Part shown: one piece after another, positions 27,266 through 50,606 of the stretch
How positions within the stretch are numbered: the first letter of the stretch is position 1
How the letters are laid out: each line of letters starts with the position of its first letter
Assembly (NCBI GenBank): GCA_016187335.1
Contig: JACPJW010000001.1
Location: 192,001 to 256,000, forward strand
Direction of reading: 5' to 3'
Length of the DNA: 64,000 bases
Origin: Candidatus Aenigmatarchaeota archaeon
GTDB lineage: Archaea; Aenigmatarchaeota; Aenigmatarchaeia; GW2011-AR5
Program-made: the position numbers and the translations under genes
Notes under the pieces: generated by a model
Told to the model about the DNA's origin: nothing
What the model saw: only the letters and a program-made list of their open reading frames with translations
The model's database searches: none

Positions 27266-27298
27266 TATCTGTATTTCGGATAAATTCTTTAAATAGAA

Positions 27299-28195: not shown

Positions 28196-28351
28196 ATGGC
28201 ACAATACTGCAGGTTTTTACTTCCCCATGATTTCCAGACCAGTAAAATTCACTTTTTGGTTGTAGTATAAAACCTTTAAAAGATTGCCCCAGAAAAGAAT
28301 ACTAGATATGACCCCCAGTCTTGCACCCTCTTCGGAGGGGCGACACTGGGC

Positions 28352-28903: not shown

Positions 28904-28948
28904 TGCTTATCCTTATAGAATTACAACTATAAAATTTATAGTTATTAT

Positions 28949-29056
28949 TTCCCCATCATCTTCCTGTAGAACTCTTCGTCTTCACATCCTCGGCCCTTCT
29001 TTCATGGCCTTGATGCCTTTGACATCGCTTGCTTGAAAAACAGGGCAGCGGCAGCA
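28949..29056. repeat. Imperfect direct repeat, copy 1
   Basis: ttccccatcatcttcctgtagaa...ttctttcatggccttgatgcctttgacatcgcttgcttgaaaaaca shared with 31150-31260. Confidence 0.9.
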
Positions 29057-29091
29057 GACGGCAGGAGCCATTTTCTGCTCAAGAGCGGCTT

Positions 29092-29286
29092 TCAAATTCT
29101 TAAACGTCGTCTTCTGGGTTTTCTTCTTAGATGTCTTCGCACTATTCTTCCAAGCTTCTTATGTTTTTTGACTTTCACTGGTTTTTTCCATGTAACTTTT
29201 AAGTTACCCTTTGGAATAGGACCTATAGTGCCTACTTCTCCTTCCACTTTTTCAATCCCTTCCAAAACTTTTTTGATTTGTTTCAT
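29092..29286 (-). CDS. Small very basic protein
   Basis: K/R-rich C-terminus. Confidence 0.5.
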   Translation of the reverse strand: MKQIKKVLEGIEKVEGEVGTIGPIPKGNLKVTWKKPVKVKKHKKLGRIVRRHLRRKPRRRRLRI

Positions 29287-29390
29287 TATCTCTGCACCTC
29301 ATTACATTCAGGGCATCTTACGAACTGGTAGCGGGCTTTGAAGTTGCAGTTTTCTGTAATCCTTAAAAAGACCCGATTTATTTCTTATAA

Positions 29391-30686: not shown

Positions 30687-31145
30687 CTTGTTACCACATT
30701 TCTTGCAGAATTTACTGCCTTCTTTATTTCGTATTTTACAGTTTAAACAGATATAATTTTCAATTAAGGATTTTTTCAATTCCTTAAAATCAATAAATCT
30801 TTCCATTTTCTTATCTTCAATTCTTTCAAACTTTTTCTTATGTTTTTTTGAATGATGTATAAGCATCGTTATGTCAGCTAAAGTAATAAAAATAAATATC
30901 ATAAAACTAGCAGTGTAAATCATTTCGTTTGATTTTGTAATAAGATACATAATAAAAAAAGAGCCAAAGGCATATGCTGCTCTTCTGTACTCGCCTAAAT
31001 ATAAATAGCCCGCGCCGATAAAGGAAAAAAATAATTGTAAAATTAACGCTATCCAATATTTTTTGTTAGAAAGCCGAAGTATGTCAGATTTAGGACGGCT
31101 CTTTACAATCTCATGATATTTATCATACAGATATCCTTGTTTCAT
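30681..31145 (-). CDS. TM2-like membrane protein with C-terminal Zn ribbon
   Basis: GAGYLYLG, TM helices, CLNC...CKKC. Confidence 0.75.
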   Translation of the reverse strand: MKQGYLYDKYHEIVKSRPKSDILRLSNKKYWIALILQLFFSFIGAGYLYLGEYRRAAYAFGSFFIMYLITKSNEMIYTASFMIFIFITLADITMLIHHSKKHKKKFERIEDKKMERFIDFKELKKSLIENYICLNCKIRNKEGSKFCKKCGNKL

Positions 31146-31149
31146 TCAC

Positions 31150-31260
31150 TTCCCCATCATCTTCCTGTAGAATTCCAAGATCCTCCGGCAACATCCTGAC
31201 TTCTTTCATGGCCTTGATGCCTTTGACATCGCTTGCTTGAAAAACATGGCAGCGGCCGCA
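31150..31260. repeat. Imperfect direct repeat, copy 2
   Basis: Matches 28949-29056. Confidence 0.9.
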
Positions 31261-31283
31261 GAAATCTTTACATGAATAATGAA

Positions 31284-32234
31284 CTAGTATAGCCCTAGAT
31301 TTTCTTCCATTCCTTTTAGTTCCCTCTTCTTTTCTATCAAATTCATAATATGTATAGGTTCGTAAATTTTTAGCTTATCAGAAAAATGTTTATCTTCTGC
31401 GGAAGCAATATTTAATATCTTTTTTATCGCTTCTTTAGGTACTACAATCCTTGGCAAAGAATTCCATCTATTAAAAGCGAATTTCAACCTCATTACTGCT
31501 CTTTCTATCATTCCGGAAAGTTCAACTTCAAATACGTACGTAGGTACTCCACTAATCTCTCTTTTCCATACAACATCAATATTTTTGTCTTCATGTGAGA
31601 GATTTATAGGATACTCTAATTCGGTATGATAAAACTGAAGCTTACCGATTTCAGCTATAGTGTTTTGCAAATCTCTATGTGATAGAGTTCCTTTAGATGT
31701 AATATGTTCTACAGCAATGTATTTTGGTGAGCTTTCCATTACAGTCATTGGTTGGGAAACTACAGGTTGAATAATAGTTGAGCCTCGAAACAGATCTGTG
31801 GTCTTTGTGCCAAAAGTGCTCTCTGCTAGCTCGAAAAGACGTATTGACTTTTTGATATCGAGTAATTGAAAGCCAACTTGCCAATTAAGTCGAAAGTCTG
31901 AAATATCTATTTTATCAGTTTTCCATTTGTCTCTTGATAAAGTTTTTAAAATTTGGATCCTGAATCTCAGAGGCCATATAACTTCTTTATTCTTTTTCTC
32001 TTCTTCCCAAACAGGGTTTACATTATCTATATACTTGTCTTTTACCCTTCCGATGCCTATAATGCCCTTTACCGGGCTTGTTGCGTAAAACCATATAAAA
32101 TCTCCAACATTCAAAGAAGAAAAGTCTGATTGATACCTCGGCTTCAATCCCCATAAAGGTACAGGATGTGAAAGTGCAGTTTCCCAGTTCTTAATTACTC
32201 CGATAACTAACCAATTATTGAATTCTTTATTCAT
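31284..32234 (-). CDS. EVE-domain protein fused to a putative PD-(D/E)XK nuclease
   Basis: N-terminal WL...NW...LWG...GDFIWFY...GIIGIG...WPLRF; C-terminal IDVVW...FEVE. Confidence 0.75.
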   Translation of the reverse strand: MNKEFNNWLVIGVIKNWETALSHPVPLWGLKPRYQSDFSSLNVGDFIWFYATSPVKGIIGIGRVKDKYIDNVNPVWEEEKKNKEVIWPLRFRIQILKTLSRDKWKTDKIDISDFRLNWQVGFQLLDIKKSIRLFELAESTFGTKTTDLFRGSTIIQPVVSQPMTVMESSPKYIAVEHITSKGTLSHRDLQNTIAEIGKLQFYHTELEYPINLSHEDKNIDVVWKREISGVPTYVFEVELSGMIERAVMRLKFAFNRWNSLPRIVVPKEAIKKILNIASAEDKHFSDKLKIYEPIHIMNLIEKKRELKGMEENLGLY

Positions 32235-32264
32235 GCCATATAAGTTATTTCTAAAGCTTAAAAA

Positions 32265-32495
32265 CTATCTTTGAATTTCATTACATTCAGGACATCTAAA
32301 GAATTTATAACGTGCCTTGAAGCCGCAGGAGAGGCATTTCATTTCTTCTCTGGAAGGTGGTGCGATTTCTATATCCCTTTCTTCCATCATATTTTCTGGT
32401 CTAACCATAAGTTTACTAAATGAGTATTTGCTCATATGCATTTTTTGTCTTTGTTTCCTATTAGCAGCTCTTGATGCTATGCTTTTTCCACCCAT
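32265..32495 (-). CDS. Small Zn-ribbon protein
   Basis: CLSC...CPEC. Confidence 0.6.
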   Translation of the reverse strand: MGGKSIASRAANRKQRQKMHMSKYSFSKLMVRPENMMEERDIEIAPPSREEMKCLSCGFKARYKFFRCPECNEIQR

Positions 32496-32503
32496 AATAA
32501 CAC

Positions 32504-35500
32504 CTATTTACTAAAATTGAAAATACTTTCTCCTTCGCCATAATAATTATCAAATACGTGTTGAAAAGCTATTTCACATTTATTTTGATAATCTTTTTGG
32601 TTATATGAAGATTCTGGAAGTCCTTTATCAAGCTCTATCTCAATCTCTCTTTTGACTTTGGCACGTGTTTGTTGTTTTTTTCTCCAGTCGATTGCAGCCA
32701 GTCCGTCATGTTTTAACTTATATAAAAGTTCTTTAGCTACATTCTTTACTTGATTCTTGTCTTTTTCTGTGAGCTTTGGCTTTTTGAGTTTGTCAAATAG
32801 CGCAAGTTCTTCCTGTGTGAGACCTTCGACTACGGCTCTTCTGTCTTCTTCTTCTAGGTTGTTGCTGAATTTGACGAGTTCTTCAAAGAATCTTTCTTGG
32901 TTGAGTGAGCCTGAATTGTATTCGTCTATGAGTTGTTGGAATCTTTCTTGATAGTCGATTCTCATGCTGTTGAGACGTATCATTTCTTTGAGTTTAAATG
33001 TTAGGATGTTTTTGAGTCTTTCAATATCTGCGTTATTCTTTTTCTTTTCAAATTGTTTTTTCAAGGCTTCAAAGTCTATTTTGCTCAAGTCGATGGTTTT
33101 TGTCTTGGCTGATTCTTTGATGACATAACCTTTGGATGCGATTGATTTGTCAAGAACTAGTTGGATGTCGTGCATTACCGCTGTGATGTTTACTTCTGGG
33201 TCGAGTGAGCATATTTCTTTAATCAAGTCTTGATATAGTGCAATGTCTGTGCTAAATTCTGATGCGTCTTTATGTGGAAGAATTGCGCTGAATGTTTTAA
33301 TGGCGATGTCTGCTTTTTGCAAGAAGTTCTTCTTTATGTTATCATTTATGACGAGAACTGATAGTGCTTCATCAAGGAGTGCGTTCTTTGCAAGACCTTT
33401 GGCTTCTATGATTTTGTCGTGTTTGACTCCTTGGTCTATCAAGAAATTGTTGAGTTCCTTGATGTAGTCTTTCAAAGCTGCTACGAGCTTGTCTTTTGAT
33501 TGGATTGGAAGGTCTATTTGGCCGCCTACTGTTGGTGCAGCATAGATTGCGAGTGCTTTCTTCAAGTTCCTAAATACGTTGATGTAATCGACGATGAATC
33601 CTGCTTGTTTCTCTTTGAAGACTCGGTTTGCTCGTGCGATTGCTTGCATGAGCGTGTGGTTCTTCATTGGTTTGTCAAGGTAGATTGTTGATAGTGATAG
33701 CACGTCAAATCCTGTCATCCACATATTGCAGACAAAGACTATTTTCAACTCACTGTCTGCATCTTTGAAGATGGTTGCAAGGTCTTCATTAACCATTCGT
33801 TTTCGGTGTTTAGAGATTTCAAGGCCTTTTTCTTTGAATTTCTTAACTTCGTTCTGCTCTTGGCTGATGACAACGGCCATGTCAACCTTCTCGAGAGCAG
33901 CAATTTTCTCTCTGAGTGGTTTGACATCTTCGTATTTTGCCTTTTCTGCTTTCTTTTTGAGCTTGCCAACGTATTTTTTCCAATAATATTGAACTTTGTC
34001 ATACATCTTTACTGTAGTGGACTTGTCAATTGACACTATCATGGCCTTTCCTTCGTAACCTCTGTTGATGAAATGGTTGACAATGTCTTCTGCGATTGCA
34101 TTGAGACGGTTTTCTCTTGTGATGATATGATATTCTCTGGCAAATTCCTTTTCAAGTTTCTCTTCTTGCTGTTCATCCAGCTCTGCATTTTCGATGGTGT
34201 TATAGATGTCGTCATTAAGTTCTGGATTGATGAGATGCATTTCTGGAACTCTATTTTCATAGTATAGCGGGACTGTTGCTTTGTCTTCAACACTGGCTCT
34301 GAAATTGTAGATACTGACGTAATCGCCAAAAACTTCTTTTGTTCTTTCTTCTTTACCATAAGGGTCAAGTGGCGTTCCAGTGAATCCCAAGAATGCGGCA
34401 TTTGGTAATGCATTTCGCATATTTAGAGCAAGAATGTCGTATTGTGTTCTGTGAGCTTCATCTGTAATGATAACAATGTCGTCTCTATCCGAGAGCTTCG
34501 GATAGGTCTCTCCTTTTTCAGTTCCGAACTTGTGAATGAGCGTGAAAACAAGTCTGTGGTCTTCTTTCAAAAGCCTCTTCAGATTCTCTCCACTCTCCGC
34601 CTGTACTTTTTCTTCTGTGACAACCCCTGAATTTTGGAAGTTTCTGTAAATCTGTGTATCAAGCTCTTGACGGTCTGTAACAATGACAAAAGTGAAGTTG
34701 CCTTCAAATTTTCTCAAGACTTTTTGAGTGAAGAATATCATGGAATAGCTCTTTCCAGAGCCTTGCGTATGCCAGAAGACACCAAGCCTTCCCTTGTTCT
34801 TCTTCCTGTTTTTGAATGCTTCAATAGCATTGTTGACACCTAAGAATTGGTGGTTCTTAGCAATTATCTTGACTTGTTTGCTTTCGATTGTTGAGAAGAG
34901 AATGAAGTTCTCCAAAAGGTCAATGAGCCTGTTCTTCTCGCAAGTTCCATTGATGATTCTATCCAAAGAAACTATACCTATTTCCTTCTCTGTATCAACT
35001 TTCTTCCATTCAGAGAAGTGCTCGTAGCCACTAGTGATGCTTCCTATCTTTGCCTCTCTGCCGTTGCTGATGATGATGAAAGCATTGTACCAGAAGATCT
35101 GCGGGATAGTATCCTTGTAATCAGTGATATTATCATCAAATGCCCTCTTGACATCCGCACCACGGGCTTTGAGCTCTATCACAACAAGAGGTAGGCCATT
35201 CACGAATAAGATAAGGTCAGGCCTTCTCGTATAGACTTCGCCGGTGACCCAGAATTGTGAGGCAAGGAAGAAATCGTTCTTCTCTGGATTGTTGAAATCA
35301 ATAACTTTAACTGTTCTGTATTCATACCCGCCCTTCTTGTTCTTTGTCTTGATTTTCACACCATCTTTCAAAAGCTTGTGCACTTCATGATTCGCTTTCA
35401 CCAAAGACAGCCTGCTTCTGTCCTGTAACAATTGAGCAAGAACATCCTTCTTCGCATCATCAGACAAGCCATCATTCAATTTTTCAATAGCCTCTGACAA

Positions 35501-35653
35501 TTTCTTGACAAGCACAACATCAGACTTTGTATCCCTCCCCAAGGTCTGCGGGAACTTTTCCTCATAGCAATTTAAATGCTCAATACCCAAATCCTTCACA
35601 AAAACGTCAATAGCGGACTGCTCAACCAAAGCGTCCTCTGAGTACTCGGTCAT
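32504..35653 (-). CDS. hsdR: Type I restriction endonuclease subunit R
   Basis: PDLILFVNGLPLVVIELK, WHTQGSGKS, DEAHR, GFTGTP, QAIARANR. Confidence 0.97.
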   Translation of the reverse strand: MTEYSEDALVEQSAIDVFVKDLGIEHLNCYEEKFPQTLGRDTKSDVVLVKKLSEAIEKLNDGLSDDAKKDVLAQLLQDRSRLSLVKANHEVHKLLKDGVKIKTKNKKGGYEYRTVKVIDFNNPEKNDFFLASQFWVTGEVYTRRPDLILFVNGLPLVVIELKARGADVKRAFDDNITDYKDTIPQIFWYNAFIIISNGREAKIGSITSGYEHFSEWKKVDTEKEIGIVSLDRIINGTCEKNRLIDLLENFILFSTIESKQVKIIAKNHQFLGVNNAIEAFKNRKKNKGRLGVFWHTQGSGKSYSMIFFTQKVLRKFEGNFTFVIVTDRQELDTQIYRNFQNSGVVTEEKVQAESGENLKRLLKEDHRLVFTLIHKFGTEKGETYPKLSDRDDIVIITDEAHRTQYDILALNMRNALPNAAFLGFTGTPLDPYGKEERTKEVFGDYVSIYNFRASVEDKATVPLYYENRVPEMHLINPELNDDIYNTIENAELDEQQEEKLEKEFAREYHIITRENRLNAIAEDIVNHFINRGYEGKAMIVSIDKSTTVKMYDKVQYYWKKYVGKLKKKAEKAKYEDVKPLREKIAALEKVDMAVVISQEQNEVKKFKEKGLEISKHRKRMVNEDLATIFKDADSELKIVFVCNMWMTGFDVLSLSTIYLDKPMKNHTLMQAIARANRVFKEKQAGFIVDYINVFRNLKKALAIYAAPTVGGQIDLPIQSKDKLVAALKDYIKELNNFLIDQGVKHDKIIEAKGLAKNALLDEALSVLVINDNIKKNFLQKADIAIKTFSAILPHKDASEFSTDIALYQDLIKEICSLDPEVNITAVMHDIQLVLDKSIASKGYVIKESAKTKTIDLSKIDFEALKKQFEKKKNNADIERLKNILTFKLKEMIRLNSMRIDYQERFQQLIDEYNSGSLNQERFFEELVKFSNNLEEEDRRAVVEGLTQEELALFDKLKKPKLTEKDKNQVKNVAKELLYKLKHDGLAAIDWRKKQQTRAKVKREIEIELDKGLPESSYNQKDYQNKCEIAFQHVFDNYYGEGESIFNFSK

Positions 35654-36942
35654 GCTCCCACCTCGGACACCTTGATATCAAGCTCAGAAACGTCCAAATC
35701 GCCGGAAATTAATTTAGGAAGAAGAAGGTCACGAGTGGTAGCAAGATTTTGATTCTTCAGTTGAAGATTATCTATATCCTGATACATGCTTGAAACTATT
35801 TGAGAATACACCTCAATCGTTTTCTGATCTGGCATCACAAACTTATATTCACCAATTGGTTCAGATTTTAAATGCAATACATTGACGCCATTTGCAAATT
35901 CTTTTATGGTGATACCAAACGAAGAATAATTCAACAAACCAAAAAGCCAAGATTTGTCGAGCCCGTTCTTTGGGTTCATCTTGACTACATCCATAGAAAT
36001 TATAATTGTGTTCTCTTTCAATTTTGGGATTCTTGCAGCTCTTGCAACAATTTCTCTATTCTGGGTCATGTCTGTGACAGCAAGAACAATATCCCCGCAC
36101 TTCACAATATGCTTCTCCTTGAAGTCACCTTCAAATCTCTTCACGCCGTCATACCGGAATCCACCACCTCTCTCAAAACATTTCAAATTGACAAAAGCGA
36201 TTTTCCCATCATCAACAAGATTTTCACTTTTATAACTCAAACCCTTTTGAATATCAACAATATCGTAGACCCTCTTCACTTCCCATCCTTCTGGTATATC
36301 TCCGAGATCAGACTTAACCATCTTCACTTTCTCATGCCCAGGGAACTTGAACTTCACAAACCACTCATCATAAATGAGCTTTGCCATGGATTCAAGAAGT
36401 TGGATGCGACGAGAATTGTTTTCAAGTAACTCGTAGTAACTTGAAGCAATATTTGCAATCTTTTCTTGGGACGCCCTATTAGGAAATCTAATTTTAATCC
36501 TTCTAAAATCTTTAAGAACAACTCTGGGAATAGCAGCTCCGGTTGTAAACGTGTTTTTCATGTATGATTTTGTTGTATAACAATCTAAATAGAAATATAG
36601 ATATTTTGGACTTATTTTTTTAGGATCTGGTCTTATTATAGCAACTGAGGATAGAAGAACAAAGTGTGGCTTTGTTTTAAGAAAGCAAACTGTGTCTATT
36701 GCAGTAGCGCCATCCTTAGAGATTAATATATCTCCTTTTTCCGGTTGGCAACCTTGTCTAATTAACTTTTTGAAATCATCCTCAGATATTAACCTACAAG
36801 ATGGGATACTAACTCCAAAACTATTTAGGTCTTTTACTGAGGCCATTGGAAATCCTGTTTCAACACTTTTTGGACTAAAATGTGAACCGTCAGTAATTCG
36901 TTCACAAACTTCCTCTAAAGCAGACTCTTCAAACATTTTCAT
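35650..36942 (-). CDS. hsdS: Type I RM specificity subunit
   Basis: Two TRDs with conserved spacers (IPEGWEV; [11 protein letters not shown]). Confidence 0.95.
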
Positions 36943-38440
36943 TCTCCAATAATTTATTCACATTCTCCGATATTTGTTCTTCAAGCTTGTGCGCTTCCTC
37001 ATTCAGCTCTTCGAGCTCTTCATTCATCTCTTCGAGTTTTTCTTTAAAATCATAGTCATCTTCTTTCTGTTCGGTCACGCCAACGTATCGTCCAGGATTC
37101 AAAGACCAGCCTTGCTCTTCGATCTCTGCAAAAGATGTAATTTTGCAAAGACCTTGAACATCTTTGTATTTCTTTGCTCCATTTTCTTTGCGATAGCTTC
37201 TTACGATGCCTGCAATTTGGTCTATTTGTTCTGGCGTGAATTCCCTGTGTGCCCTGTCAATCTGCTTGAAAATGTTTCTGGCGTCAATGAAAAGAATCTT
37301 TCCTTTCCTGTCTGTTTTTGCTTTGTTTTTGTCCAAGAACCATAATGTGCACGGCAAAGTCACCGTATAGAAGAAGTTTCCTGAAATCGCAATCATCACA
37401 TCTATTGCGTTCTGCTGAATTAGTTTCTTTCTGATTTCTGCTTCTGCACCGCGGGCATCGGCTGCGGAGTTGGCCATGACAAATCCTGCACGGCCTTTCT
37501 CGTTCAATGCAGAATAAAAAAGCTGAATCCAAAGATAGTTTGCATTGTCTGTCGATGGCAAGCCAAAAGGCCAACGCGCGTCTCCTTTGACTTTTTCATA
37601 ATCAACCCTATCTACGTTGAACGGCGGATTAGCCATGACAAAATCGAACTTACCGACGACTTTATGAACATCTTCATAGTAGGTATTGGCTTCTCTGATG
37701 TCTCCAGACAATCCATGTACTGCAAGGTTCATCTTGCACAATTTGACTGTTCCAGTTACCCGCTCTTGACCGTAGATGGATAATTCTTCTGAGGGATTCT
37801 TCTTTCTCTCTTCAACGAAGTGAGCACTCTGCACAAACATACCTCCTGAACCACATGCTGGGTCAAGAAGCTTTCCGTGGAATGGCTCAATAACTTCAAC
37901 AATTAGTTTGACCAGTGATGTTGGTGTGAAAAACTCACCACCTTTCTGGCCTTCTTTCATAGCAAATTTGCCAAGGAAATACTCGTAGATTTTACCGAAA
38001 GCATCGCCTTCTGTTACTGCAAGCTTATCAGGAGAAAAGGCTTTGAGGAGTGTGACGAGTAAATCATTTGTGAATTTGGAATATCCTCTCGGAAGTGTTC
38101 CTTTTAAATCAGGATTGGCTTCTTCGATGGAATCCATAGCACTGTCAATAGCTTGACCTATATCGCTGCCTTCTGATAAACCCAAGAGATATGAATATCT
38201 GGCTTTCTCTGGTAGATAGAGGACACCTTCTGCCTGATAATCGAGTTTACCAACCTGTCTCCGTGAACCTTGTCTTTTGCCTTCTAACTCTTTTTGTTTC
38301 TTGGTGAACTTGAAATCGGCATGACGGAGGAAAACTAGGCCAAGGACTGGGGTAGAATATTCGGCAGAACTCAATTTGGAGTTGGCTCTTAAATTATCTG
38401 CAATATCCCAAAGCCTTTTTTCTGTTTCGCCGTTAGTCAT
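36929..38440 (-). CDS. hsdM: Type I RM N6-adenine methyltransferase
   Basis: [20 protein letters not shown]. Confidence 0.97.
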
Positions 38441-38452
38441 TTTATCTCCTCG

Positions 38453-39148
38453 CTATATAACGCCTGTTTCTTTCATGCTTGTATAGCCTTTATTTCCAAT
38501 TATTATATGGTCCAAAACTTCTACACTCATCACAGTTCCTAGTTTTCTCATTTGATTTGTTAATTGTATGTCTTCATCGCTTGGGGTTGGGTCTCCAGAG
38601 GGGTGATTATGAATAAATATTACGGCGGCAGCCGATTCAACCAGAGCCTCTTTAAAAATCTCTCTTGGATAAACGGCATTAGAGCTAATGGTTCCTGTGA
38701 AGATACTCTTACATTTCAATAAGTTATGTCTAACATCTAAAAACAATACATAGAAATGCTCCTTTTTTGAGCTCCGGAGCCTTTTCATCAATAATTTCGC
38801 TGCATCAGAGGAGGTTTTGATTTTTTGTATTTTCTTGTTTGAATACGTATCAAACCTTTTCATGAGTTCGAAAACTGAAACTATTTGACACGCTTTAGCG
38901 TCTCCAATACCGTAAATATTTTTTAATTCAGTCACGCCTATTTCTGAGAGTTTACTTAAATCGTATTTAGCGAGAAGCTTATTGGATAATTCCAACACAT
39001 TGTCTTGTTTTGTACCAGTCCTAAGGAGTATTGCTAATAACTCACTGTTATTGAGCGATTGGGGCCCAAATCTAATAAGACGTTCCCTTGGTCTTTCAAA
39101 TTCAGGCATGTCTTTAATCCGTATTTTATAGAACATTTTTCCTTTCAT
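38453..39148 (-). CDS. radC: RadC/JAB-domain protein
   Basis: RPRERL, HNHPSGDPTPSDED, LDHIII. Confidence 0.95.
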   Translation of the reverse strand: MKGKMFYKIRIKDMPEFERPRERLIRFGPQSLNNSELLAILLRTGTKQDNVLELSNKLLAKYDLSKLSEIGVTELKNIYGIGDAKACQIVSVFELMKRFDTYSNKKIQKIKTSSDAAKLLMKRLRSSKKEHFYVLFLDVRHNLLKCKSIFTGTISSNAVYPREIFKEALVESAAAVIFIHNHPSGDPTPSDEDIQLTNQMRKLGTVMSVEVLDHIIIGNKGYTSMKETGVI

Positions 39149-39795
39149 CTATGCACCTTTCTCTCCCTCACATACTCACAAAGCCCGCATTCTTTATTAG
39201 GCTTAGGCTCCTCCCCTTCCAAACACTTAACAGCATCCTTGAAAACTTTTAACGCTTTCTTCGGGTCGGTTTTCACCTTCACAGCATGCACCCTAAACGG
39301 TATTCCTTCGTGGAGTTCGCCAAAATCAGGATAGTAATAAACTATGTAGCCGACGCCGTTGGTCTGGTGCCCGTTCTCGTTCAGCAGCAGCGAGTAGCAG
39401 TCCATCTGAAGTTGGTAGGCATCGTTCATTTCGTTCCCGGACTTTAGGGCAAATCCTTTTGTCTTGTGATCCAGCGGCGCGTGGTCGCCGTCATCAAGAA
39501 CCAAGCATTCATCCAATCTGCCACTCAAAACATTGCCGCCTATTTCTGCTTTGAGTGATTTTGGTAAGAATTCTATCAGTTTGCCGGGAACCTTGCCTTC
39601 CAAGAACGGCGGTATTTTTCCGTGCGGCCTGTAGCGGTTCATGTATTCTTTTATCACGCGGTCAAGGCCGTTCATGATGGTTGCCATCGGTGTGCCGGGA
39701 GTGTCTATGACCTTGTTCATGGACAGCCAGAAGCAGAGCGGGCAGTTGAGGAAGAAGTTCAGGGAGGTGGGGGAGAGTTTGATCATTTTCATCAC
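39145..39795 (-). CDS. Cas4/AddB-like PD-(D/E)XK nuclease
   Basis: CPLC, GRLD, LDHKT, QMDCY, CGLC. Confidence 0.85.
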   Translation of the reverse strand: MMKMIKLSPTSLNFFLNCPLCFWLSMNKVIDTPGTPMATIMNGLDRVIKEYMNRYRPHGKIPPFLEGKVPGKLIEFLPKSLKAEIGGNVLSGRLDECLVLDDGDHAPLDHKTKGFALKSGNEMNDAYQLQMDCYSLLLNENGHQTNGVGYIVYYYPDFGELHEGIPFRVHAVKVKTDPKKALKVFKDAVKCLEGEEPKPNKECGLCEYVRERKVHR

Positions 39796-39804
39796 TTAAC
39801 ATTT

Positions 39805-40257
39805 TTAACTTTCTTTCTTATCAAAAAAGTAATCCCATTTATCTCTATATTTATTTTTTAATTTCCTTAATCTGCTTAATTCTACAACTGTTCTATTCCC
39901 TTTTGGATTTCTGTAAATTATAGATTTTTCGCCAAGTTCTTTATGTTCATTTTCTAACTCGGTGGATGGAACTATATATACTTCTGGTAAACATTTTAGG
40001 TCATTTATTTTATTCAAGAATGAAATAAAAATCAGAAAATGATTTTTGTGTTTTCTATTCCAATTATCTATTGGGAAATTACTCGTACCTCTAAGACCTT
40101 TTACATCTGCTGTTAATGTTTCACCGTTTTTATCAATAACGATATCTATAGATTTTTTATTACCTAATGTAAGATATGCATTTACATTCATTCTATATAA
40201 TATGGAAAGGACATAGTATTCTGATGCTAAGTTTGTATTTTGTCCCGTATCTCCCAT
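39805..40257 (-). CDS. Small PD-(D/E)XK restriction-like nuclease
   Basis: ASEYYV...SIDIV...ADVKG. Confidence 0.75.
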   Translation of the reverse strand: MGDTGQNTNLASEYYVLSILYRMNVNAYLTLGNKKSIDIVIDKNGETLTADVKGLRGTSNFPIDNWNRKHKNHFLIFISFLNKINDLKCLPEVYIVPSTELENEHKELGEKSIIYRNPKGNRTVVELSRLRKLKNKYRDKWDYFFDKKES

Positions 40258-40285
40258 TAAATCACATCTTTCTTAGCTATTAAGC

Positions 40286-40990
40286 TCACCTAGCTCTATT
40301 AATTATGAATTTTTTTTCTTCTAACCGTAAGTTATATTTTTCCTTGTTATGCCTTTCTATTTCTTTGCCTTTATTGATGCAAAGACTATTGAGAAACGAG
40401 TTTATACTTCTTTTACTAGATTTTGGTTTTTTTCTTAGAAAATCTTTCAGTTTTTCAATATATTCGTCGTACACTTTTGCTTTCAACTCATCGCTCATGA
40501 GTTTATTATACCACATTGTAAGCAAAATTCTAGAAACTGCATTGGTTTCCTTCCCAGAGTAATGGTCTCGTTTTATAAAATCTTTTGCAAGTGATATCGA
40601 AAGTTCTTCTAGCAACTCTTTTAATTCCTTTTTCTCGATTCCGGAATTGTCAAATTCTCTATCAAACTTGTCTTTATGATTCCATATGTCTACAACAAAA
40701 ATTTTTTTTATTGTTTTAGGCATGTTTAACTCATCAGCAAAGGTACCGGAAAATTTTTTTCCAATTATATTCATATCTGAAATTAGTTTTCTAACGCCAT
40801 TCTGATGTATCCAATTTTTACAATTAATTATTAGAGTTTCTTTTTTATTAGAAGCTAAGACATCTATGTCTGACCAACCAAATTGTTTTTTACTTTCACG
40901 TTTAATCCTTAAAGGGAAATTACGCTGCGTTAGATATCCATTATTTCTACACCATGCTTCAGTAATATCTTCAACATAAGAAAATACCAT
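40286..40990 (-). CDS. PD-(D/E)XK-like nuclease (Hjc/Mrr-like)
   Basis: EAWCRNNGY...SDIDVLA...INCK. Confidence 0.65.
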   Translation of the reverse strand: MVFSYVEDITEAWCRNNGYLTQRNFPLRIKRESKKQFGWSDIDVLASNKKETLIINCKNWIHQNGVRKLISDMNIIGKKFSGTFADELNMPKTIKKIFVVDIWNHKDKFDREFDNSGIEKKELKELLEELSISLAKDFIKRDHYSGKETNAVSRILLTMWYNKLMSDELKAKVYDEYIEKLKDFLRKKPKSSKRSINSFLNSLCINKGKEIERHNKEKYNLRLEEKKFIINRAR

Positions 40991-41093
40991 TTTTTCACCT
41001 CTACAACCTCTTCCTCAATCATTATTACAATTTCATAGTCTCACCACCTTTTACTGACCTCTCGAAAAATTGGAGTCTTTCGAGATGAAGACT

Positions 41094-41603
41094 CTATTTT
41101 ATCGGAAATAATTTAATTACTGAGCCGCTTGCACGTCGCTGACGCGCCGGATTATCTAATTTTGAAACAGCAACGGCATCTTTACCATTGCTTAAATATT
41201 TTAGATTTTTAAATGGAAATACGAATGCACGTAATGATCCATCTTTATTTCCAACAACTATTCCTATCCAAGCATCAGTTTTCCATGCTTTCATGGAATT
41301 TTTTATTTGTTTTGATCCTATAGGAATCGTGGGTACAAATTTTTTATATGTTTTTGAGATTCTTGCCTTCACTGAAATACCAATAATTTTATTTTTCTGA
41401 AAAATTTTTCCTCTAGAATCAATAGCAAATAAATCAAAACCGATGTTACGTGCTCTTACTACATTAACGCCTTTTTTAGATAACAAATAAGTTATAAAAC
41501 TTTCTCCAAAATCTCCAGAATGAATTGCTTCGCTACCTATATTTGGATTATTCTTCCAAGCTTTTTTACCAGCAATGGACATTTTGTTTTTCATACTCTG
41601 CAA
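41094..41603 (-). CDS. PD-(D/E)XK-like nuclease
   Basis: GDFGESF...GFDLFA...ISVKAR. Confidence 0.7.
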   Translation of the reverse strand: MQSMKNKMSIAGKKAWKNNPNIGSEAIHSGDFGESFITYLLSKKGVNVVRARNIGFDLFAIDSRGKIFQKNKIIGISVKARISKTYKKFVPTIPIGSKQIKNSMKAWKTDAWIGIVVGNKDGSLRAFVFPFKNLKYLSNGKDAVAVSKLDNPARQRRASGSVIKLFPIK

Positions 41604-41639
41604 CCGATTTCACAATCTTCGCTCAATCATATTACGATT

Positions 41640-42290
41640 CTATAACCTCGCCACCCTGCCCGCATCAGTAAGCTGGTAGCCCTTGCCTTCTGCGACTTCT
41701 ATGAGGCCCATGTCCTTCAGCGCCTTGATGCTGCGGTATGCCATGGCGCGCGTGATTCCTAATTTGTCTGCGAGCTCTGCAACGTTCTGGTTGTCCTCTA
41801 TTTCTTCTAAAATTCGGAGCTGGCTTTTTGTGACTTTGAAGGGCAGTATGGGCAATATAACAGGGTTTTTGCTCTCCCATGGAACATAAAATATCTTCTT
41901 TATGCGGTCCCAGCGCTTGTAAGCCGCGAGTAGGACGCCGAGGGCTTTCGGCTTCTTGCCTGAGGTGATGTTTATGTAAATCTCATCCTTGTTCGGGATG
42001 GCATCAATAAGCTCCACGACCTCTGTTGCAGATGATACGGCGTCCAGGTGGTCAACGGATTTTTCCTTGATCTCGATGACCTTGCCGAGCGTTCTCTTTA
42101 TCTCAGCCACGGACTTTTCCTGCAAATCATCCTCGGGCTTTCTGTCCTTGATAAGGTATATCCTGTCGGCAGACAGCTTGTTCGCAAGAAGAAAAATGGA
42201 GTCGGATGTGTGCACAGTACTGACCAGCACCCTTGCCATATCCTCGTCTTTTTCCTGAACGCTTATATCGTTTACAGTATAATTTTCCAT
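41640..42290 (-). CDS. CARF (Csa3/DUF6293-like) plus winged-HTH transcriptional regulator
   Basis: Rossmann-like N-domain (ADRIYLI, IYINITSGKK) and C-terminal wHTH (VAELADKLGITRAMAYRSIKALKDMGLI). Confidence 0.8.
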   Translation of the reverse strand: MENYTVNDISVQEKDEDMARVLVSTVHTSDSIFLLANKLSADRIYLIKDRKPEDDLQEKSVAEIKRTLGKVIEIKEKSVDHLDAVSSATEVVELIDAIPNKDEIYINITSGKKPKALGVLLAAYKRWDRIKKIFYVPWESKNPVILPILPFKVTKSQLRILEEIEDNQNVAELADKLGITRAMAYRSIKALKDMGLIEVAEGKGYQLTDAGRVARL

Positions 42291-42352
42291 GATATTGTAT
42301 ACTATTTTGATATATCTTTAAATATTTCGGTATACATTAACTACGTGGGGGT

Positions 42353-42583
42353 TTGATGGCTTCGGCAATGGCAGTGCGGACATCGGAAAACAGGATAAGC
42401 AGTCTGCAGGCGGAAAAGAAGCGGCTCATGTGGCACAATCACAGGATATACTGCTCTGAATGCAGAAAGTATTATCCCGAAGGCAAATGCAAAATAAGGA
42501 TAAATTTCGGGGAGGGCGGCTGGTGGTTCGACGATATTGAAGCGAAATGCCCGAAAGGCCATTCATTCATCGTGCATGATTAG
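42353..42583 (+). CDS. Small Cys/His-rich protein
   Basis: CSEC...CPKGH; divergent from the CARF-HTH gene. Confidence 0.55.
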   Translation: MMASAMAVRTSENRISSLQAEKKRLMWHNHRIYCSECRKYYPEGKCKIRINFGEGGWWFDDIEAKCPKGHSFIVHD

Positions 42584-42674
42584 GTGATTTCATGCAGCCC
42601 TGAAGCCAAAATATTATGGGGCGCAAAGCACGGGCCGAAAAGAAAGATGCTCATGTTGGCGGTGTGGTGATATT

Positions 42675-42893
42675 ATGATATGCGCTCTTTGCCCGAAAGG
42701 TAAAAGAGAAGTTATGGATGACAGCACTAACGTGGACCCTCGCGGCAGAAACCATATTCATGTCTTGCAGGTAAACAAGAAAGGCAAGATCGTCTGGGGA
42801 ATGTGCTATCTTGACAAGTTAGTGCCTTTCAGCAGGTTTGAGGATTTTACTGCTGATGTTTCCTGTCTGATTAAAGAAACCAAGAAAAAATAA
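42675..42893 (+). CDS. Small hypothetical protein
   Basis: MICALCPKG; GGTG RBS-like element. Confidence 0.5.
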   Translation: MICALCPKGKREVMDDSTNVDPRGRNHIHVLQVNKKGKIVWGMCYLDKLVPFSRFEDFTADVSCLIKETKKK

Positions 42894-42983
42894 TGGACTG
42901 GTCGGGACTTTCACCAACTTTGCTTCCTCTTTTGATCAAACTTTGGAGCAGCAAAGTTTGCTTTGAACCCGAAGCCTCCTGGC
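42894..42983 (-). tRNA. Orphan 3' half of a tRNA-Ala-type gene with a 54-nt 59/60 intron (42908-42961)
   Basis: G-CCAGG-AGGCU-UCGGG-UUCAAA[intron]U-CCCGA-CCAGUCC-A; BHB UUCA/UGAA; no 5' half nearby. Confidence 0.8.
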
Positions 42984-42996
42984 TATAATGTCGCAT

Positions 42997-44379
42997 CTAT
43001 TTCACAAAGCCCTGCTTGATATCGCCGATGTCAAAAAGCAGTACATTGTTTTCCCTGATTCTTTTGCTGAAACTCCTGGCAAAGACGGCATAGTAGTCTT
43101 TTCTGTCTTTTTTGAAAAGCTCAACCTGCTCTGATTTTTTCTTTAAGCCGCTTATTACAGCGTTAGGATCAGCATTGTCTTTCCATTTGCATTCGCAGAA
43201 CAGCATTTCTTTTGTTTTTTTGTTGAAGGCTACCATGTCCATTTCTTCCTGCCTGCTCCACCATCTGCCTATATTTGTGGCGCTGAAAGGGAGCCTGCCC
43301 TTTGCATTGGCTTCTATCAGAAACTCCCTGCATACGCCTTCGAATGCCTTTCCCACAAATGCCGTGAAATTACTCCTTACGCTTTCCGTTACAGGCCCGG
43401 AATTCTCTATTTCCAGATAAGACATGTTAGGGTACACAAAACGGAACCAGAAATTGAAGAAATTGTCATTTATGAAATAAAGGGTCTTCTTGCTTTTCGG
43501 CTTCATCTCTGTGACAGGATTTTCCTTCTTTATGAGCCCCATGCCTTTTTCAAGCACGTTCAGGAAGTAACTGAGCGAGGTCTGCTTTATGCTTATCATG
43601 TCGGCTATCTCATTTGTCTTTGTCCTTCCTTGTGCTATTAGCTTCATTATATTGAAGTATGTCGCAGGATTCGGAAGCTCTGTTCTTATGAGCATATCAG
43701 GCTCGTTGTAAAGCGCGCCTCTTTTTGAAAGTATGCTCGCCTCTATGCTTTTTATCACATCCACCTTCGCATCCGCTTCCAGGAGATATTTTGGCGTCCC
43801 TCCGAATACTGCATAGATTTCCACTAATTTTTCTGCCGGAACAGAAGGGAACCATTCGAACAAATGCCTGAATTTGAGCGGCTCCAGGTCTATCTGGCCT
43901 GTGCGCCTGCCGTAGAGCGGTGCCGAATACTCGAAAAGCTTGTGCATCATTCCTATCGAAGAGCCCATGACAGCAAGGAAAACTCCTGATTTCTTGTGGT
44001 GGCTGTCTATCTGCTTCTGAAGAATCGAGGGTACAGATTTGTTTATAGTCAGGAATCGCTGGAACTCATCAATCACGATAACAGTCCTTTCCTGCATTCC
44101 AAGCATGCGGTCGAAAATCTCGTCCCATGCCGGCTCTCCAATAAAACTCAGTCCGAATTTTTCGTTAAGGTTTCTTGCAAAAATCAGCCTGAGCTCCTTG
44201 TCATCTATGTCAGGCACAAAGAAGTAGAGCGCTTTCTTTCCTGATATGAACTTTTCGATAAGGGCTGTCTTGCCGACACGCCTCCTGCCTATTACTGATA
44301 TGAACCTGAAGCCATCGTTCTTGTGCTCTTTGGCAAGAAACCCCAGCTCGTCCGCCCTGTTTATAAACTTTATTGTCAT
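42997..44379 (-). CDS. Archaeal AAA ATPase with DUF234 C-terminal domain
   Basis: FINRADEL, GRRRVGKT, IDEFQ, GRRTG, FGGTPKY, GRWW. Confidence 0.9.
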   Translation of the reverse strand: MTIKFINRADELGFLAKEHKNDGFRFISVIGRRRVGKTALIEKFISGKKALYFFVPDIDDKELRLIFARNLNEKFGLSFIGEPAWDEIFDRMLGMQERTVIVIDEFQRFLTINKSVPSILQKQIDSHHKKSGVFLAVMGSSIGMMHKLFEYSAPLYGRRTGQIDLEPLKFRHLFEWFPSVPAEKLVEIYAVFGGTPKYLLEADAKVDVIKSIEASILSKRGALYNEPDMLIRTELPNPATYFNIMKLIAQGRTKTNEIADMISIKQTSLSYFLNVLEKGMGLIKKENPVTEMKPKSKKTLYFINDNFFNFWFRFVYPNMSYLEIENSGPVTESVRSNFTAFVGKAFEGVCREFLIEANAKGRLPFSATNIGRWWSRQEEMDMVAFNKKTKEMLFCECKWKDNADPNAVISGLKKKSEQVELFKKDRKDYYAVFARSFSKRIRENNVLLFDIGDIKQGFVK

Positions 44380-44436
44380 GACAATTATTGTGATGACAAT
44401 AATATTTAAAGCTATCGTACTCCCGGCGAGCATGTG

Positions 44437-44553
44437 AAAAGAACTTTGTCTCCACCACATAAATGTGGTGGCTTCATTATTACCAAAGTTCTTTTACACG
44501 CCACATTCCACCTGTATTACCACCGTTTAAAAACGGTGGAATGTGAGTGTTTC
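44437..44553. repeat. Nested palindromes resembling IS200/IS605-type ends
   Basis: aaaagaactttg...caaagttctttt; ccaccaca-taaa-tgtggtgg; caccgttt-aaaaacggtg. Confidence 0.55.
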
Positions 44554-44555
44554 AA

Positions 44556-44856
44556 TGGACTGGCTGGGATTTTCAGAACTTTTCACCGTTTTCCTCGAAG
44601 AACATCAGTTCTTCGGGATCTCGGAGAACTATCGTTCTCCACAGATGATCAAACTTTTGTGAAAAGTTCGTTTGAACCCAGAGCCTCCTGCTATCTTGTT
44701 TGCCTCTTTTGATCGAACTTTGGAGTAGCAAAGTTCGTTGCAAAGCAGGCGATCTTCCTTCTCCGAACCCTTTTTGCTTCGCAAAAATCGTTCACGGAAA
44801 AACTTCTTTCCGTAGACGCTTTCTTTTTAAGAAAGGGTCTGTTGATCTACCAGCCC
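44556..44856 (-). tRNA. tRNA-Ala(UGC) with three introns (D-loop ~44759-44840; 37/38 44693-44738; 59/60 44570-44670)
   Basis: Spliced product is a 72-nt cloverleaf GGGCUGG...CCUGC-UUUGCAA-GCAGG...CCAGUCCA; BHB helices at 37/38 and 59/60. Confidence 0.9.
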
Positions 44857-45019
44857 GTGGCTAAAGCATAATATCCTAGGGCTTAAATAAATTGGTTTAA
44901 AATTGCCTGAAACAGCATCATATCCTTTAAATATTCACCCAATACATAGGACATCCTATAAACTTTCTTAAAAGAGAATTAGAGAATTTAACCAAAGAAT
45001 CTGTATTCAAAGTGATACC

Positions 45020-46300
45020 ATGGTAAAACGCCTCATTGTTCATTTCAAGGACGTGTTTTCCCCGCTGCGGCTGCGCGACCTGCGGCTTTACTGGCTGGGG
45101 CAGGTCATATCGCTCATCGGGATATGGATGCAGGCGACCGCGCAGTCGTGGGTCGTCTGGACGCTCACTGGAAGCACCGTGGACCTGGGCGCGGTCGCGA
45201 TGCTGGGCCTGCTGCCTTTCTTGCTCCTCGCGCCCTTCACTGGTTCCATCGCCGACAGGGTCGACAGGAGGAAGCTGCTGATACTGACGCAACTGGTGGC
45301 GATGACGCTCGCCTTCGTCCTTGCCTGGCTTGTCCATACCGATGCCGCCCAGCTCTGGCACATATACGTCCTCGCGCTGCTGCTTGGTATTGTGAACTCC
45401 TTTGACAGCATCGCCAACCAGGCTTTTGTCAGTGACCTGGCCGGCAGCGAGGTCAGGAAGGCCGTTATCATAAACAACATGCTGTTCCAGCTGAGCAGGA
45501 TGCTGGGCCCTGCGCTGGCCGGCATTGTCATCGCGGCGGCCGGAGCGGCTGCGGCTTTCTGGTTCAACGGCGTGACGTTCCTGGCGGTCATAGCAAGCCT
45601 GCTCGCGATAAAGGCCCACCAGCAGGTGCGCGTCGAAAGCAAGGGAAAGGCATTGGACGATTTCAAGGAAGGGCTGCGCTTCCTGCGAAGCAGCCCGGTG
45701 CTGACGGGCCTTGTATGGATAGTGACCATAACGACTTTCTTCGTCTTCCCGACAATGTTCATCCTGCCCGCTGTAGCGACTAATGTGCTCGGGGGCGACG
45801 CTTCCACTTTGGGCCTTTTAATGGCTTCTTCCGGCGCGGGAGCGCTCGTCGGATCGTTGTTCATAGCGCCGCTCGCGCAGAAGATAAGAAGAACCGGCCT
45901 GATGCTGGCCGCGGCTTCTGTATGGGCCGGGCTGTGGCTGACCGTGTTCTCTTTCAGCAATATTCTCCAGGTATCCATGATAGCATTGTTCTTTAGCAGC
46001 CTGCTGATACCTGTAATATTCACGACAGCCAACGCGCTGCTGCAGCTCATGGCGCCGCCTCATATGAAGGCGAGGATGATAAGCATCCTCATGCTGATAG
46101 GCCTCGGCATGCAGCCTGTGGCTTCGTACCTGCTGGGATATTCCGCAGCCATTCTGGGCATCCAGGCAGCGCTGCGGCTCAACGGATTATTGATGATAAC
46201 AGCTATTGCCGCCCTTCTTTTCTTTGATTCTGAACTGCGGAAATGGGAAACTGAAATCACGGTCGAGGGAAAAGGACATCCTGCCGCGGCAGGGCATTAA
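45020..46300 (+). CDS. MFS transporter (MFS_3/H+ antiporter-like)
   Basis: GSIADRVDRRKLL motif A; about 12 TMs. Confidence 0.92.
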   Translation: MVKRLIVHFKDVFSPLRLRDLRLYWLGQVISLIGIWMQATAQSWVVWTLTGSTVDLGAVAMLGLLPFLLLAPFTGSIADRVDRRKLLILTQLVAMTLAFVLAWLVHTDAAQLWHIYVLALLLGIVNSFDSIANQAFVSDLAGSEVRKAVIINNMLFQLSRMLGPALAGIVIAAAGAAAAFWFNGVTFLAVIASLLAIKAHQQVRVESKGKALDDFKEGLRFLRSSPVLTGLVWIVTITTFFVFPTMFILPAVATNVLGGDASTLGLLMASSGAGALVGSLFIAPLAQKIRRTGLMLAAASVWAGLWLTVFSFSNILQVSMIALFFSSLLIPVIFTTANALLQLMAPPHMKARMISILMLIGLGMQPVASYLLGYSAAILGIQAALRLNGLLMITAIAALLFFDSELRKWETEITVEGKGHPAAAGH

Positions 46301-46376
46301 GTTTTGAAAATTCTATATTTGTATTTTTGCTTCCATAATTTTTACGTGATTGCATGGCAAAATTCCGCGGCGGTGA

Positions 46377-47189
46377 TTGAAAATGAACATTCCTTCTGTT
46401 GTTCTGAACAGCGGCGCAAAGATGCCGCAGCTCGGCTTGGGAACATGGGACCTCCGCGGCTCTGAATGCGTTCGTGCCGTGAGGGATGCGCTGGACGCGG
46501 GTTACCGCCACGTAGACACCGCCTCGCTCTACGGCAATGAAAAGGAAGTGGGTTTAGCAGTGAAAAAAAGCGGCGTGCCGAGAAAGGATTTGTTCATTAC
46601 CAGCAAGATATGGAACGATGAGCATGACGACCCCGAAGCGGCCCTGGAGGCGTCGCTGAAGCGGCTTGGAACGGATTACGTTGATTTGTACCTGATACAC
46701 TGGCCTGTTCCAGAAAGGAACGAAACGTGGCGCGCGTTTGAGGGCTTTCTTAAAGACAAACGCTGCAGGTCCGTAGGCGTGAGCAATTTCACGGTGCGGC
46801 ATCTTAAGGAATTATTGAATAAAAGAAACGTTGTCCCCGCCGTAAACCAGATAGAATTTTCCCCGTTCCTTTACCAGAAAGACATCCTGCAGTTCTGCAA
46901 CGAAAGTAAAATACGGCTCGTGGCGTCAAGCCCGCTCACGCATGGCAGGAAGCTGAAGCATGCCGTGATTGCTGCTCTGGCGAAGAAATACAGCAAGACG
47001 CCTGCTCAGATAGTGCTGCGCTGGCACATCCAGCACGGCATCGTGCCGATACCGAAATCAAAAAGCAGGGAACGGATAGAAGAGAACGCAGCGATTTTTG
47101 ACTTTTCAATCAGCAGGGAGGACATGGCTTTGCTGGACGGCTTGGACGAGGGCTACCACTATTATGCCGACCCGGGCGACGAGCCTTGA
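46377..47189 (+). CDS. Aldo/keto reductase
   Basis: GLGTW, DTASLYGNE, DLYLIHWP, GVSNF, PIPKS. Confidence 0.95.
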   Translation: MKMNIPSVVLNSGAKMPQLGLGTWDLRGSECVRAVRDALDAGYRHVDTASLYGNEKEVGLAVKKSGVPRKDLFITSKIWNDEHDDPEAALEASLKRLGTDYVDLYLIHWPVPERNETWRAFEGFLKDKRCRSVGVSNFTVRHLKELLNKRNVVPAVNQIEFSPFLYQKDILQFCNESKIRLVASSPLTHGRKLKHAVIAALAKKYSKTPAQIVLRWHIQHGIVPIPKSKSRERIEENAAIFDFSISREDMALLDGLDEGYHYYADPGDEP

Positions 47190-47794
47190 GGGCTGCATCT
47201 TGTATATCCTCCGCTACCGAAAAGGGTTTTAATCCTGTTTTTCAAGAAAGTTGCATGAAAAAGCAGGTTCTGAAGCGCATGCCTGAAGAAACGCAGAAAG
47301 TGCATGCCGCTGATTTTGAAAAGGAAAAGAAGAAACTGGAACAGAGCTTCAAAAAGAAAGAAATGCCCTTCCGCCTGTTCTGGGTGAAGTGAAAATATCT
47401 ACTATTTCTGTTAAAACCTGTAGATAGCTTCGGCTAAATCGTATCGATAAAAAAATCCAGCTTTCTTTGCGTTTTGGAAAAAATAGCGCGCAAAGGTACA
47501 GGTAGTTCCGGGTTACGTCCCGGAACTCACGGAGCCGCAGCTCCGATGAATTGGCATTCTATCTCATGGCCCTCTTTTGATGAAACTTTTTTGAAAAGTT
47601 TCAGAGGAAAGCACACTGACTGTCGCAGAACCCTTTCGGATTCTTTTGATAAAACTTTTCTTGAAAGAAAAGTTTTTAGGAGGTGATCCAGCCGCACGTT
47701 CCCGTACGGCTACCTTGTTACGACTTAGCCCTCCTTGCAGACAATTGATTCGACTTATTCAGCATAAGCCTCACCAAAAGTCCACTCGGATGGC

Positions 47795-50550: not shown

Positions 50551-50600
50551 GTTTGCGAACTTTTCAGTTCCGTTTTGATGGAACTTTTCTGAAAAGTTCC
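50551..50600 (-). other. 16S BHB micro-intron, 50 nt (~Ec 374)
   Basis: UUGC/GCAA helix, GAAC/GUUC stem; family-1 hairpin. Confidence 0.88.
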
Positions 50601-50606
50601 TTGCAA

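Follow-up and report, generated by a model that had tools for sequence, protein, structure and literature searches.

The 64,000-nucleotide stretch of DNA analysed here, referred to as the window, carries on its minus strand the 3' half of a tRNA-Ala gene, which stands apart from a 5' half of its own. This orphan fragment is probably the displaced 3' half of the tRNA-Ala(UGC) gene that lies further upstream on the same strand, probably non-functional and the scar of a DNA insertion at a tRNA hotspot. The genome under study (G000) comprises 1.01 Mb in two contigs (C1 and C2), with 47% GC and a completeness of 91%. Its EF-1alpha is most similar (91%) to that of groundwater MAGs labelled Candidatus Aenigmatarchaeota. 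The region 39912-44460 is spanned with zero differences by a 4,549-nt contig from one public groundwater run, and the junctions of the orphan fragment are therefore not an assembly artefact of the G000 MAG alone. The contigs of a second study (X5/X6) are identical to the flanks but do not extend across the fragment itself.

Two copies of a tRNA-Ala 3' half

Neither of the two tRNA-Ala loci in the window was called by ARAGORN (default, with introns) or by Rfam (gathering and E-value modes), and their anatomy is therefore based on reading of the sequence and on re-folding of the spliced exons. When the exons of the intact gene are joined, ARAGORN folds a normal tRNA-Ala(tgc) cloverleaf with G3:U70. 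The fragment, located at 42983-42894 on the minus strand, comprises tRNA-Ala positions 38-73, interrupted at 59/60 by a 54-nt intron; an earlier, sequence-only reading had described it as positions 38-73 only, which direct reading of the minus strand bears out. The features of this region are the following:

44556-44856, minus strand: intact tRNA-Ala(UGC) gene with three introns (D-loop, 37/38 and 59/60) and the T-stem CUGGG/CCCAG
42997-44460, minus strand: DUF234 / archaeal ATPase_2 gene (Pfam PF01637 and PF03008)
42999-42997, minus strand: TAG stop codon of the ATPase ORF
42984-42996, minus strand: 13-nt spacer AUGCGACAUUAUA between the ATPase stop and the fragment, the "leader" if the fragment is read as a split tRNA
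42962-42983, minus strand: first exon piece of the fragment, positions 38-59 (read directly)
42983, minus strand: G38
42982-42978, minus strand: 3' strand of the anticodon stem, CCAGG
42977-42973, minus strand: variable loop, AGGCU
42972-42968, minus strand: 5' strand of the T-stem, UCGGG
42967-42962, minus strand: T-loop, UUCAAA
42961-42908, minus strand: 59/60 intron of 54 nt, predicted to be BHB-capable (hand-built BHB and folds), with its core at 42926-42960
42907-42894, minus strand: second exon piece, with U60, CCCGA (3' strand of the T-stem), CCAGUCC (3' strand of the acceptor stem) and A73
42884-42893, minus strand: TTATTTTTTC run straight after A73
17920-17954, 22322-22356, 44638-44672, 47570-47604, 50568-50602 and 62330-62364: examples of a dispersed hairpin repeat in the window

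Along the minus strand, the intact gene is followed by a 95-nt spacer, a 487-codon ORF (44460-42997) and, 13 nt after the stop codon of this DUF234 ATPase, the fragment, which lies 1.57 kb downstream of the intact gene in the same orientation. The 13-nt spacer agrees with the 3' end of the 37/38 intron of the intact gene at 8/13 positions, which is not significant. Within the window, the 20-nt and 14-nt exon blocks of the fragment occur only here and, with two mismatches each, in the intact gene, while zero chance matches are expected for the 20-mer. A search for a third partial copy of tRNA-Ala, including the 23S side of the defence island described below, yielded nothing above chance (up to 3 mismatches; blastn-short).

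U70 of the fragment fits the G3:U70 identity pair of tRNA-Ala, and no CCA is encoded after the discriminator A73. By its letters, the TTATTTTTTC run looks like an oligo-T terminator belonging to the fragment; a convergent ORF of 72 aa on the plus strand (42675-42893) has its TAA stop (42891-42893) within this run. The T-stem, the acceptor strand and the BHB are all unblemished, an outcome that purifying selection would also produce. The anticodon-stem strand had earlier been read as a distinct "G38 + CCAGG" version; these letters are present, but the usual A38-GCAGG with one extra C reads equally well. Compared with the 3' half found in the genus g9, the fragment reads AGC[C]AGGAGGCUUCGGG, the additional C falling in the anticodon-stem strand; such an insertion would be compatible with early decay.

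The two copies differ in their T-stems (UCGGG/CCCGA in the fragment vs CUGGG/CCCAG in the intact gene; two base pairs, four substitutions), and their 59/60 introns are unrelated. The T-stem difference, which had been called compensatory, is real but no new invention, as the T-arm of the fragment is identical to that of the tRNA-Ala(GGC) of G000 (C1:28537-28682) and to that of the tRNA-Ala(UGC) of genus g9. Across the 44 family genomes, the 3' 13-mer of the fragment is found only at tRNA-Ala genes of G000 and genus g9. The T-arm and acceptor strand of the working gene (CUGGG..CCCAG-CCAGUCCA) occur in 0/43 family genomes and in 1/370 other genomes of the class. On this comparison, the T-arm of the fragment is the family-typical version and that of the working gene the rare one. 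The search for a donor of the working gene's 3' half, which covered 371 class genomes, gave a single match, free of introns, in a distant family (G240), too little for a donor to be named. The longest runs common to the two copies measure 8, 9 and 10 nt (AGGAGGCT, GGGTTCAAA and CCAGTCCATT), and such short runs would suit an old or heterologous event and not a fresh att pair. As a separate observation, the 59/60 intron of the intact gene (101 nt; 44566-44679, minus strand) has copies at C2:411923-412036 and C2:716665-716780, which are 94% and 86% identical and located at the apparent T-loop positions of two other tRNA loci.

For the 59/60 intron of the fragment, an intact BHB had been proposed, and a hand-built model indicates that it is feasible: a 4-bp helix (UUCA/UGAA) between the 3-nt bulges AAg and agU is bordered by the T-stem on one side and by a 9/10-bp inner helix on the other. 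In its MFE fold, the 59/60 intron of the intact gene adopts this geometry as well. A near match between the core of this intron and the 37/38 intron of the intact gene had also been noticed. The likeness holds (31/33 positions), but there is no special link behind it, the core being one copy of a genome-wide repeat with more than 100 copies. This repeat consists of a hairpin (AACTTT..AAAGTT, with covarying outer pairs) and a AUCAAAAGAGG tail. Counted as a hairpin with an ATCAAAA tail, it reaches at least 109 copies per 1 Mb, and the sister genome has copies too. The copies are located between protein genes, behind tRNA genes and within tRNA and rRNA introns; intergenic copies often overlap the upstream stop codon and lie 8-30 nt before the next start. 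The hairpin repeats of the two tRNA-Ala copies are 94% alike and in direct orientation. Judged by its distribution, the shared core says nothing specific about the 59/60 intron of the fragment and the 37/38 intron of the intact gene. A role of the repeat as promoter was also considered, as about 35% of the copies lie within 50 nt before an ORF start vs 14% in the reverse orientation, but it was dropped because ordinary tRNA genes carry plain TATA boxes and the stem of the repeat covaries.

Broken synteny, an ATPase cassette and a defence island

In five other genera of the family (G004, G009, G012, G014 and G019), the distance from tRNA-Ala(UGC) to the 23S rRNA gene, which follows it downstream on the same strand, is 325-1,293 nt. 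In G000, 22.5 kb separate the two genes, consisting of the ATPase cassette, the fragment and a defence island, and the synteny conserved among these genera is broken exactly here. The further features of this region are:

16275-22038, minus strand: 23S rRNA gene (Rfam)
24080-25057: Fic gene, just outside the low-GC island
25000-42893: low-GC island (35-42% GC; genome 47%), which abuts the 3' end of the fragment (composition and Pfam)

The two rRNA genes of the window, both on the minus strand, greatly exceed their Rfam models in length and must therefore be full of introns. The region between the 3' end of the 16S gene and tRNA-Ala(UGC) (44857-47677) holds a plus-strand aldo-keto-reductase-like ORF and an MFS transporter, with a GC content of up to 50-55%; with these two genes in between, 16S, tRNA-Ala and 23S are all unlinked in G000. 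G009 likewise has no 16S gene directly upstream of tRNA-Ala.

The low-GC island begins right after A73 of the fragment and the T-run, in agreement with the earlier description of the fragment as sitting at the edge of a defence island. Its genes encode a CARF-HTH protein, PD-(D/E)XK nucleases, RadC, a type I R-M system (HsdM/S/R), a HerA/FtsK-like ATPase, an NYN protein, a Cas4-like nuclease, part of an XPD-like helicase and unknowns; between the 23S rRNA gene and the fragment there are two PD-(D/E)XK nucleases, and the type I R-M system is complete. Pfam revealed no integrase in the ORFs regarded as genes between 22 and 47 kb (110 aa or longer) or in the two short ORFs beside the fragment. 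The only match to PF00589 in the genome is located at C2:737809-738315, about 480 kb past the end of the window. Within the island, direct repeats connect 28949-29349 with 31150-31262 and 32266-32328 (63 nt/97%, 63 nt/76% and 26 nt/96%), which suggests duplicated gene ends.

The ATPase gene between the two tRNA-Ala copies is a single-copy cassette in G000 and was found in 8/44 family genomes. The stretch common to other genera is 42997-44416, and the true start of the ATPase is probably located downstream of the annotated ATG at 44460. Identity to the cassette of genus g5 amounts to 86-87% at the amino acid level and 86-88% at the nucleotide level over 1.4 kb, and nucleotide identity to G018 to 75%. 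The homology stops exactly at the stop codon, the C-terminus up to the TAG being native to the cassette. Compared with G021, the ATPase protein is 86% identical, equal to EF-1alpha (85%). Such an identity, on par with EF-1alpha, is high for an accessory gene; the high identity to g5 could be vertical, g5 being a fairly close genus. In G005, the same cassette is located about 400 nt behind a different tRNA. By this patchy distribution in the family, the cassette was probably transferred, and the DNA between and beyond the two tRNA-Ala copies is of accessory and mobile character. The 5' end of the cassette carries a palindrome of 39-41 nt around a TTTAAATA box.

Origin of the fragment and competing explanations

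In the sequence-only reading, two explanations had been offered for the fragment, namely a split tRNA and an attachment-site relic. The latter survives in part. The synteny break, the patchy cassette and the defence genes speak for an integration, but an integrase, an identical core and an empty-site allele were not found. As expected of an att duplication, positions 38-73 are repeated downstream as a direct repeat on the same strand, and the DNA at this site is accessory, the site being empty in relatives. Among the contigs of public runs mapped to the locus, no empty-site allele was detected. A contig joint from 42981 to 44736 (two runs; shorter side 20 nt; genome-like depth) was considered as such an allele, in which the 5' half would be joined to the orphan. 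It is most simply explained by the tRNA-Ala(GGC) contig of C1 mapped in two pieces, and, its depth also lying above that of the island-side flank, it was not counted as an empty site. The remaining contig joints, which lead to 47575, are cross-matches between copies of the hairpin repeat.

The insertion may be pictured as follows. In the ancestral layout, tRNA-Ala(UGC) would have been located just upstream of the 23S rRNA gene, as is usual in the family. Foreign DNA would then have entered at the tRNA gene, with the low-GC defence island now starting after A73 of the fragment; that the island starts right after A73 and the T-run is expected if the fragment once ended a live gene. Later, or in the same process, a segment with another tRNA-Ala 3' half and the DUF234 ATPase cassette would have been joined to the 5' half, which would have rebuilt a working gene and moved the older 3' half about 1.6 kb downstream. 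The youth of the event, and not any use, would explain why the T-arm, the 59/60 intron and the oligo-T terminator are still present in the old half, and today the fragment would most likely be a passive passenger on the 3' end of the ATPase transcript. The age of the halves relative to each other, the order of these events and the inertness of the fragment are thus parts of a reconstruction. Since neither an integrase nor an identical att core was found, we infer the mechanism as well; the join could have been made by a site-specific integrase that has since been lost, or by homologous plus illegitimate recombination. Homologous or illegitimate recombination with the DNA of a relative may have contributed more to the scar than a resident integrase did. 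A single integration would enclose the whole element, and the position of the island outside the two copies therefore calls for at least two events or for a third copy that has been lost.

A pseudogene formed by local duplication, with no integrating element involved, is a less likely account that nevertheless deserves some weight. Slippage, or illegitimate or repeat-mediated recombination, would have produced the second copy, and accessory genes would have accrued independently at a permissive intergenic site. The missing integrase and the missing identical core would fit this process, and so would the direct orientation and 94% likeness of the hairpin repeats in the two copies, in a genome full of short hairpin repeats in which another small tRNA duplicate lies beside such a repeat at tRNA-Met. 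However, a local duplication would give equal T-stems, and the copies differ at two base pairs by four substitutions; moreover, their 59/60 introns are unrelated, and the T-arm of the working copy is rare in the class.

That the fragment serves as the 3' half of a functional split tRNA is very improbable. It would require transcription with its leader of 13 nt or more, a separate 5' half, BHB cuts by the splicing endonuclease and ligation by RtcB, the pattern of Nanoarchaeum equitans. The fragment does begin at 37/38, where tRNAs are canonically split, and its T-arm, acceptor strand, discriminator and BHB intron are free of flaws; the many non-canonical introns imply a broad-specificity splicing system in the lineage, and with a genome that is 91% complete the partner could be unassembled. 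Nevertheless, a search of both strands of both contigs of the 91%-complete assembly for a 5' half that combines the acceptor strand GGRYUGG with the anticodon-stem strand YYUGG found none; GGGCUGGUAG starts are followed by further tRNA sequence only in the UGC and GGC genes themselves, and hidden 5' pieces within several kb on either side of the fragment are limited to the 5' end of the intact gene. The longest complements of the leader (30 nt before the fragment) measure 10-12 nt, none of them beside tRNA-like sequence, and about ten matches of this length are expected by chance in 2 Mb. The leader is also AT-rich, in contrast to the GC-rich leaders of known split halves (PMC3218864). On inspection, the 80 nt upstream of the fragment, which are the last codons of the ATPase, contain no TTTAAA/TTTATA box, also not at -25 to -50, whereas sixteen ordinary tRNA genes of G000 have such boxes about 30-45 nt upstream. 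Nor is an Ala isoacceptor missing, a gap that the sequence-only reading had raised as a possibility: intact genes exist for UGC, CGC and GGC. Relatives yielded no copy of the fragment, the sole genome of the same genus being 56% complete and uninformative. A broad T-arm and acceptor scan for further orphan halves was too noisy for use. With no 5' half, complementary trailer or promoter box found, the split-tRNA reading is left unsupported.

Use of the fragment in cis, as an alternative 3' exon, is highly unlikely. A transcript from the tRNA-Ala promoter through the ATPase gene would be spliced at 37/38 to the orphan half, yielding an additional tRNA-Ala(UGC) species, or would give the endonuclease an entry for trimming the ATPase mRNA. 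Such use would be helped by the common strand, by the lack of a terminator-like T-run longer than T5 between the intact gene and the fragment, and by the acceptance of the chimera of 5' half and orphan as tRNA-Ala(tgc) by ARAGORN. In the anticodon stem of this chimera, however, there is a C31-C39 mismatch or a bulged C. Of loop positions 32-35, only two or none can pair with the 4 nt (CAUU or AUUA) that precede the 3' bulge, so that at most half of the central BHB helix forms, whereas CAAG of the intact gene pairs with all four. The tRNA intron would also have to be 1.75 kb long and to hold an entire gene together with a better 3' half that competes with the orphan. By either route, with a 5' partner in the unassembled 9% or with the 5' half of the intact gene, joined over the ATPase gene, we see only a slight chance that the fragment is live. 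If it were, a split or alternatively spliced tRNA would be present in a mesophilic DPANN lineage (Aenigmatarchaeota), and its recent origin by insertion of a mobile cassette would mean that the birth of a split tRNA has been captured.

An insertion scar, the explanation we prefer, is ordinary in kind, as tRNA landing sites and partial tRNA copies are already known. Its interest lies in the fragment being an apparent older allele of the same gene, which differs from the present one in its T-stem and in the intron inserted at 59/60. In a lineage with so many introns in its tRNA and rRNA genes, such a fossil allele would offer a dated snapshot of how rapidly the exchange of tRNA halves and BHB introns proceeds. 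The fragment also marks the separation of an rRNA-linked tRNA gene from the 23S gene by about 22 kb of defence genes, and it is useful for the annotation of DPANN islands, where neither the gene nor the fragment is detected by standard tRNA finders.

Comparison with split tRNA genes and tRNA-targeted integration

Split tRNA halves were reportedly described in Nanoarchaeum equitans by Randau and colleagues in 2005. Like the split halves of N. equitans and of Desulfurococcales/Thermoproteales, the fragment has its break at 37/38 and is a complete 3' half located apart from its own contiguous 5' half. Unlike them, it comes with no partner, no complementary GC-rich leader and trailer, no promoter and no missing isoacceptor in G000. 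Real split halves have a promoter, a GC-rich leader and a BHB formed with the partner (Chan et al. 2011, PMC3218864). In the titles and abstracts of the consulted papers that name both split tRNAs and DPANN, no split tRNA outside Nanoarchaeota is mentioned. Transposed BHB introns are reported for the tRNA genes of Thermoproteales (Fujishima et al. 2010, as cited in PMC3218864). The 59/60 intron of the fragment resembles these in that its core is common to introns at other positions and in other genes, but the core in G000 is a hairpin repeat of about 35 nt that also occurs between protein genes.

Duplications of tRNA 3' ends of the att type are reported to flank integrated elements of archaea (Reiter et al. 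1989; She et al. 2001; both as cited in PMC3218864). The tRNA-Ala locus shares with them a direct repeat of the tRNA 3' part in gene orientation, adjoining foreign DNA of deviant composition and a break in synteny; it differs from them in that an integrase is lacking, the repeats have diverged, a large island lies outside the repeat pair and a whole intron-bearing 3' half is involved. G000 itself provides a case of tRNA-targeted integration. Directly downstream of tRNA-Met, a segment of about 6 kb (C2:732813-738991; 54.8% GC, flanks 48%) holds the only PF00589 integrase of the genome and ends in a 17-nt direct repeat (16/17 identical) of the tRNA-Met 3' end, and it has the appearance of a true integrated element bearing att repeats. 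The tRNA-Ala scar differs from this element in being a diverged whole 3' half with an intron and not a 17-nt repeat. Upstream of the tRNA-Met gene, at C2:738992-739030, there is also a 16-nt copy of the tRNA-Met 5' end (GCCGAAGTGGCTCAGT), with one copy of the hairpin repeat in between.

Partial tRNA fragments have further been described in Aeropyrum (A. pernix) and Thermosphaera, where they likely result from integration or rearrangement (Chan et al. 2011, PMC3218864). In Caldiarchaeum subterraneum, an inserted element lies between a tRNA-Thr fragment and the intact multi-intron gene, the two being about 1.8 kb apart, and integration and recombination have been proposed to scatter tRNA fragments and to alter introns (Sugahara et al. 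2012, PMC3293823). As in this tRNA-Thr case, the G000 locus combines a partial copy 1.57 kb off a three-intron gene with accessory DNA in between and with differing 59/60 introns. The piece in Caldiarchaeum is a 5' piece, and the insert there, present six times in the genome, carries a recombinase gene, whereas in G000 a 3' half adjoins a single-copy DUF234 ATPase gene with no recombinase. The tRNA-Thr locus of Caldiarchaeum is the closest published case to the tRNA-Ala scar.
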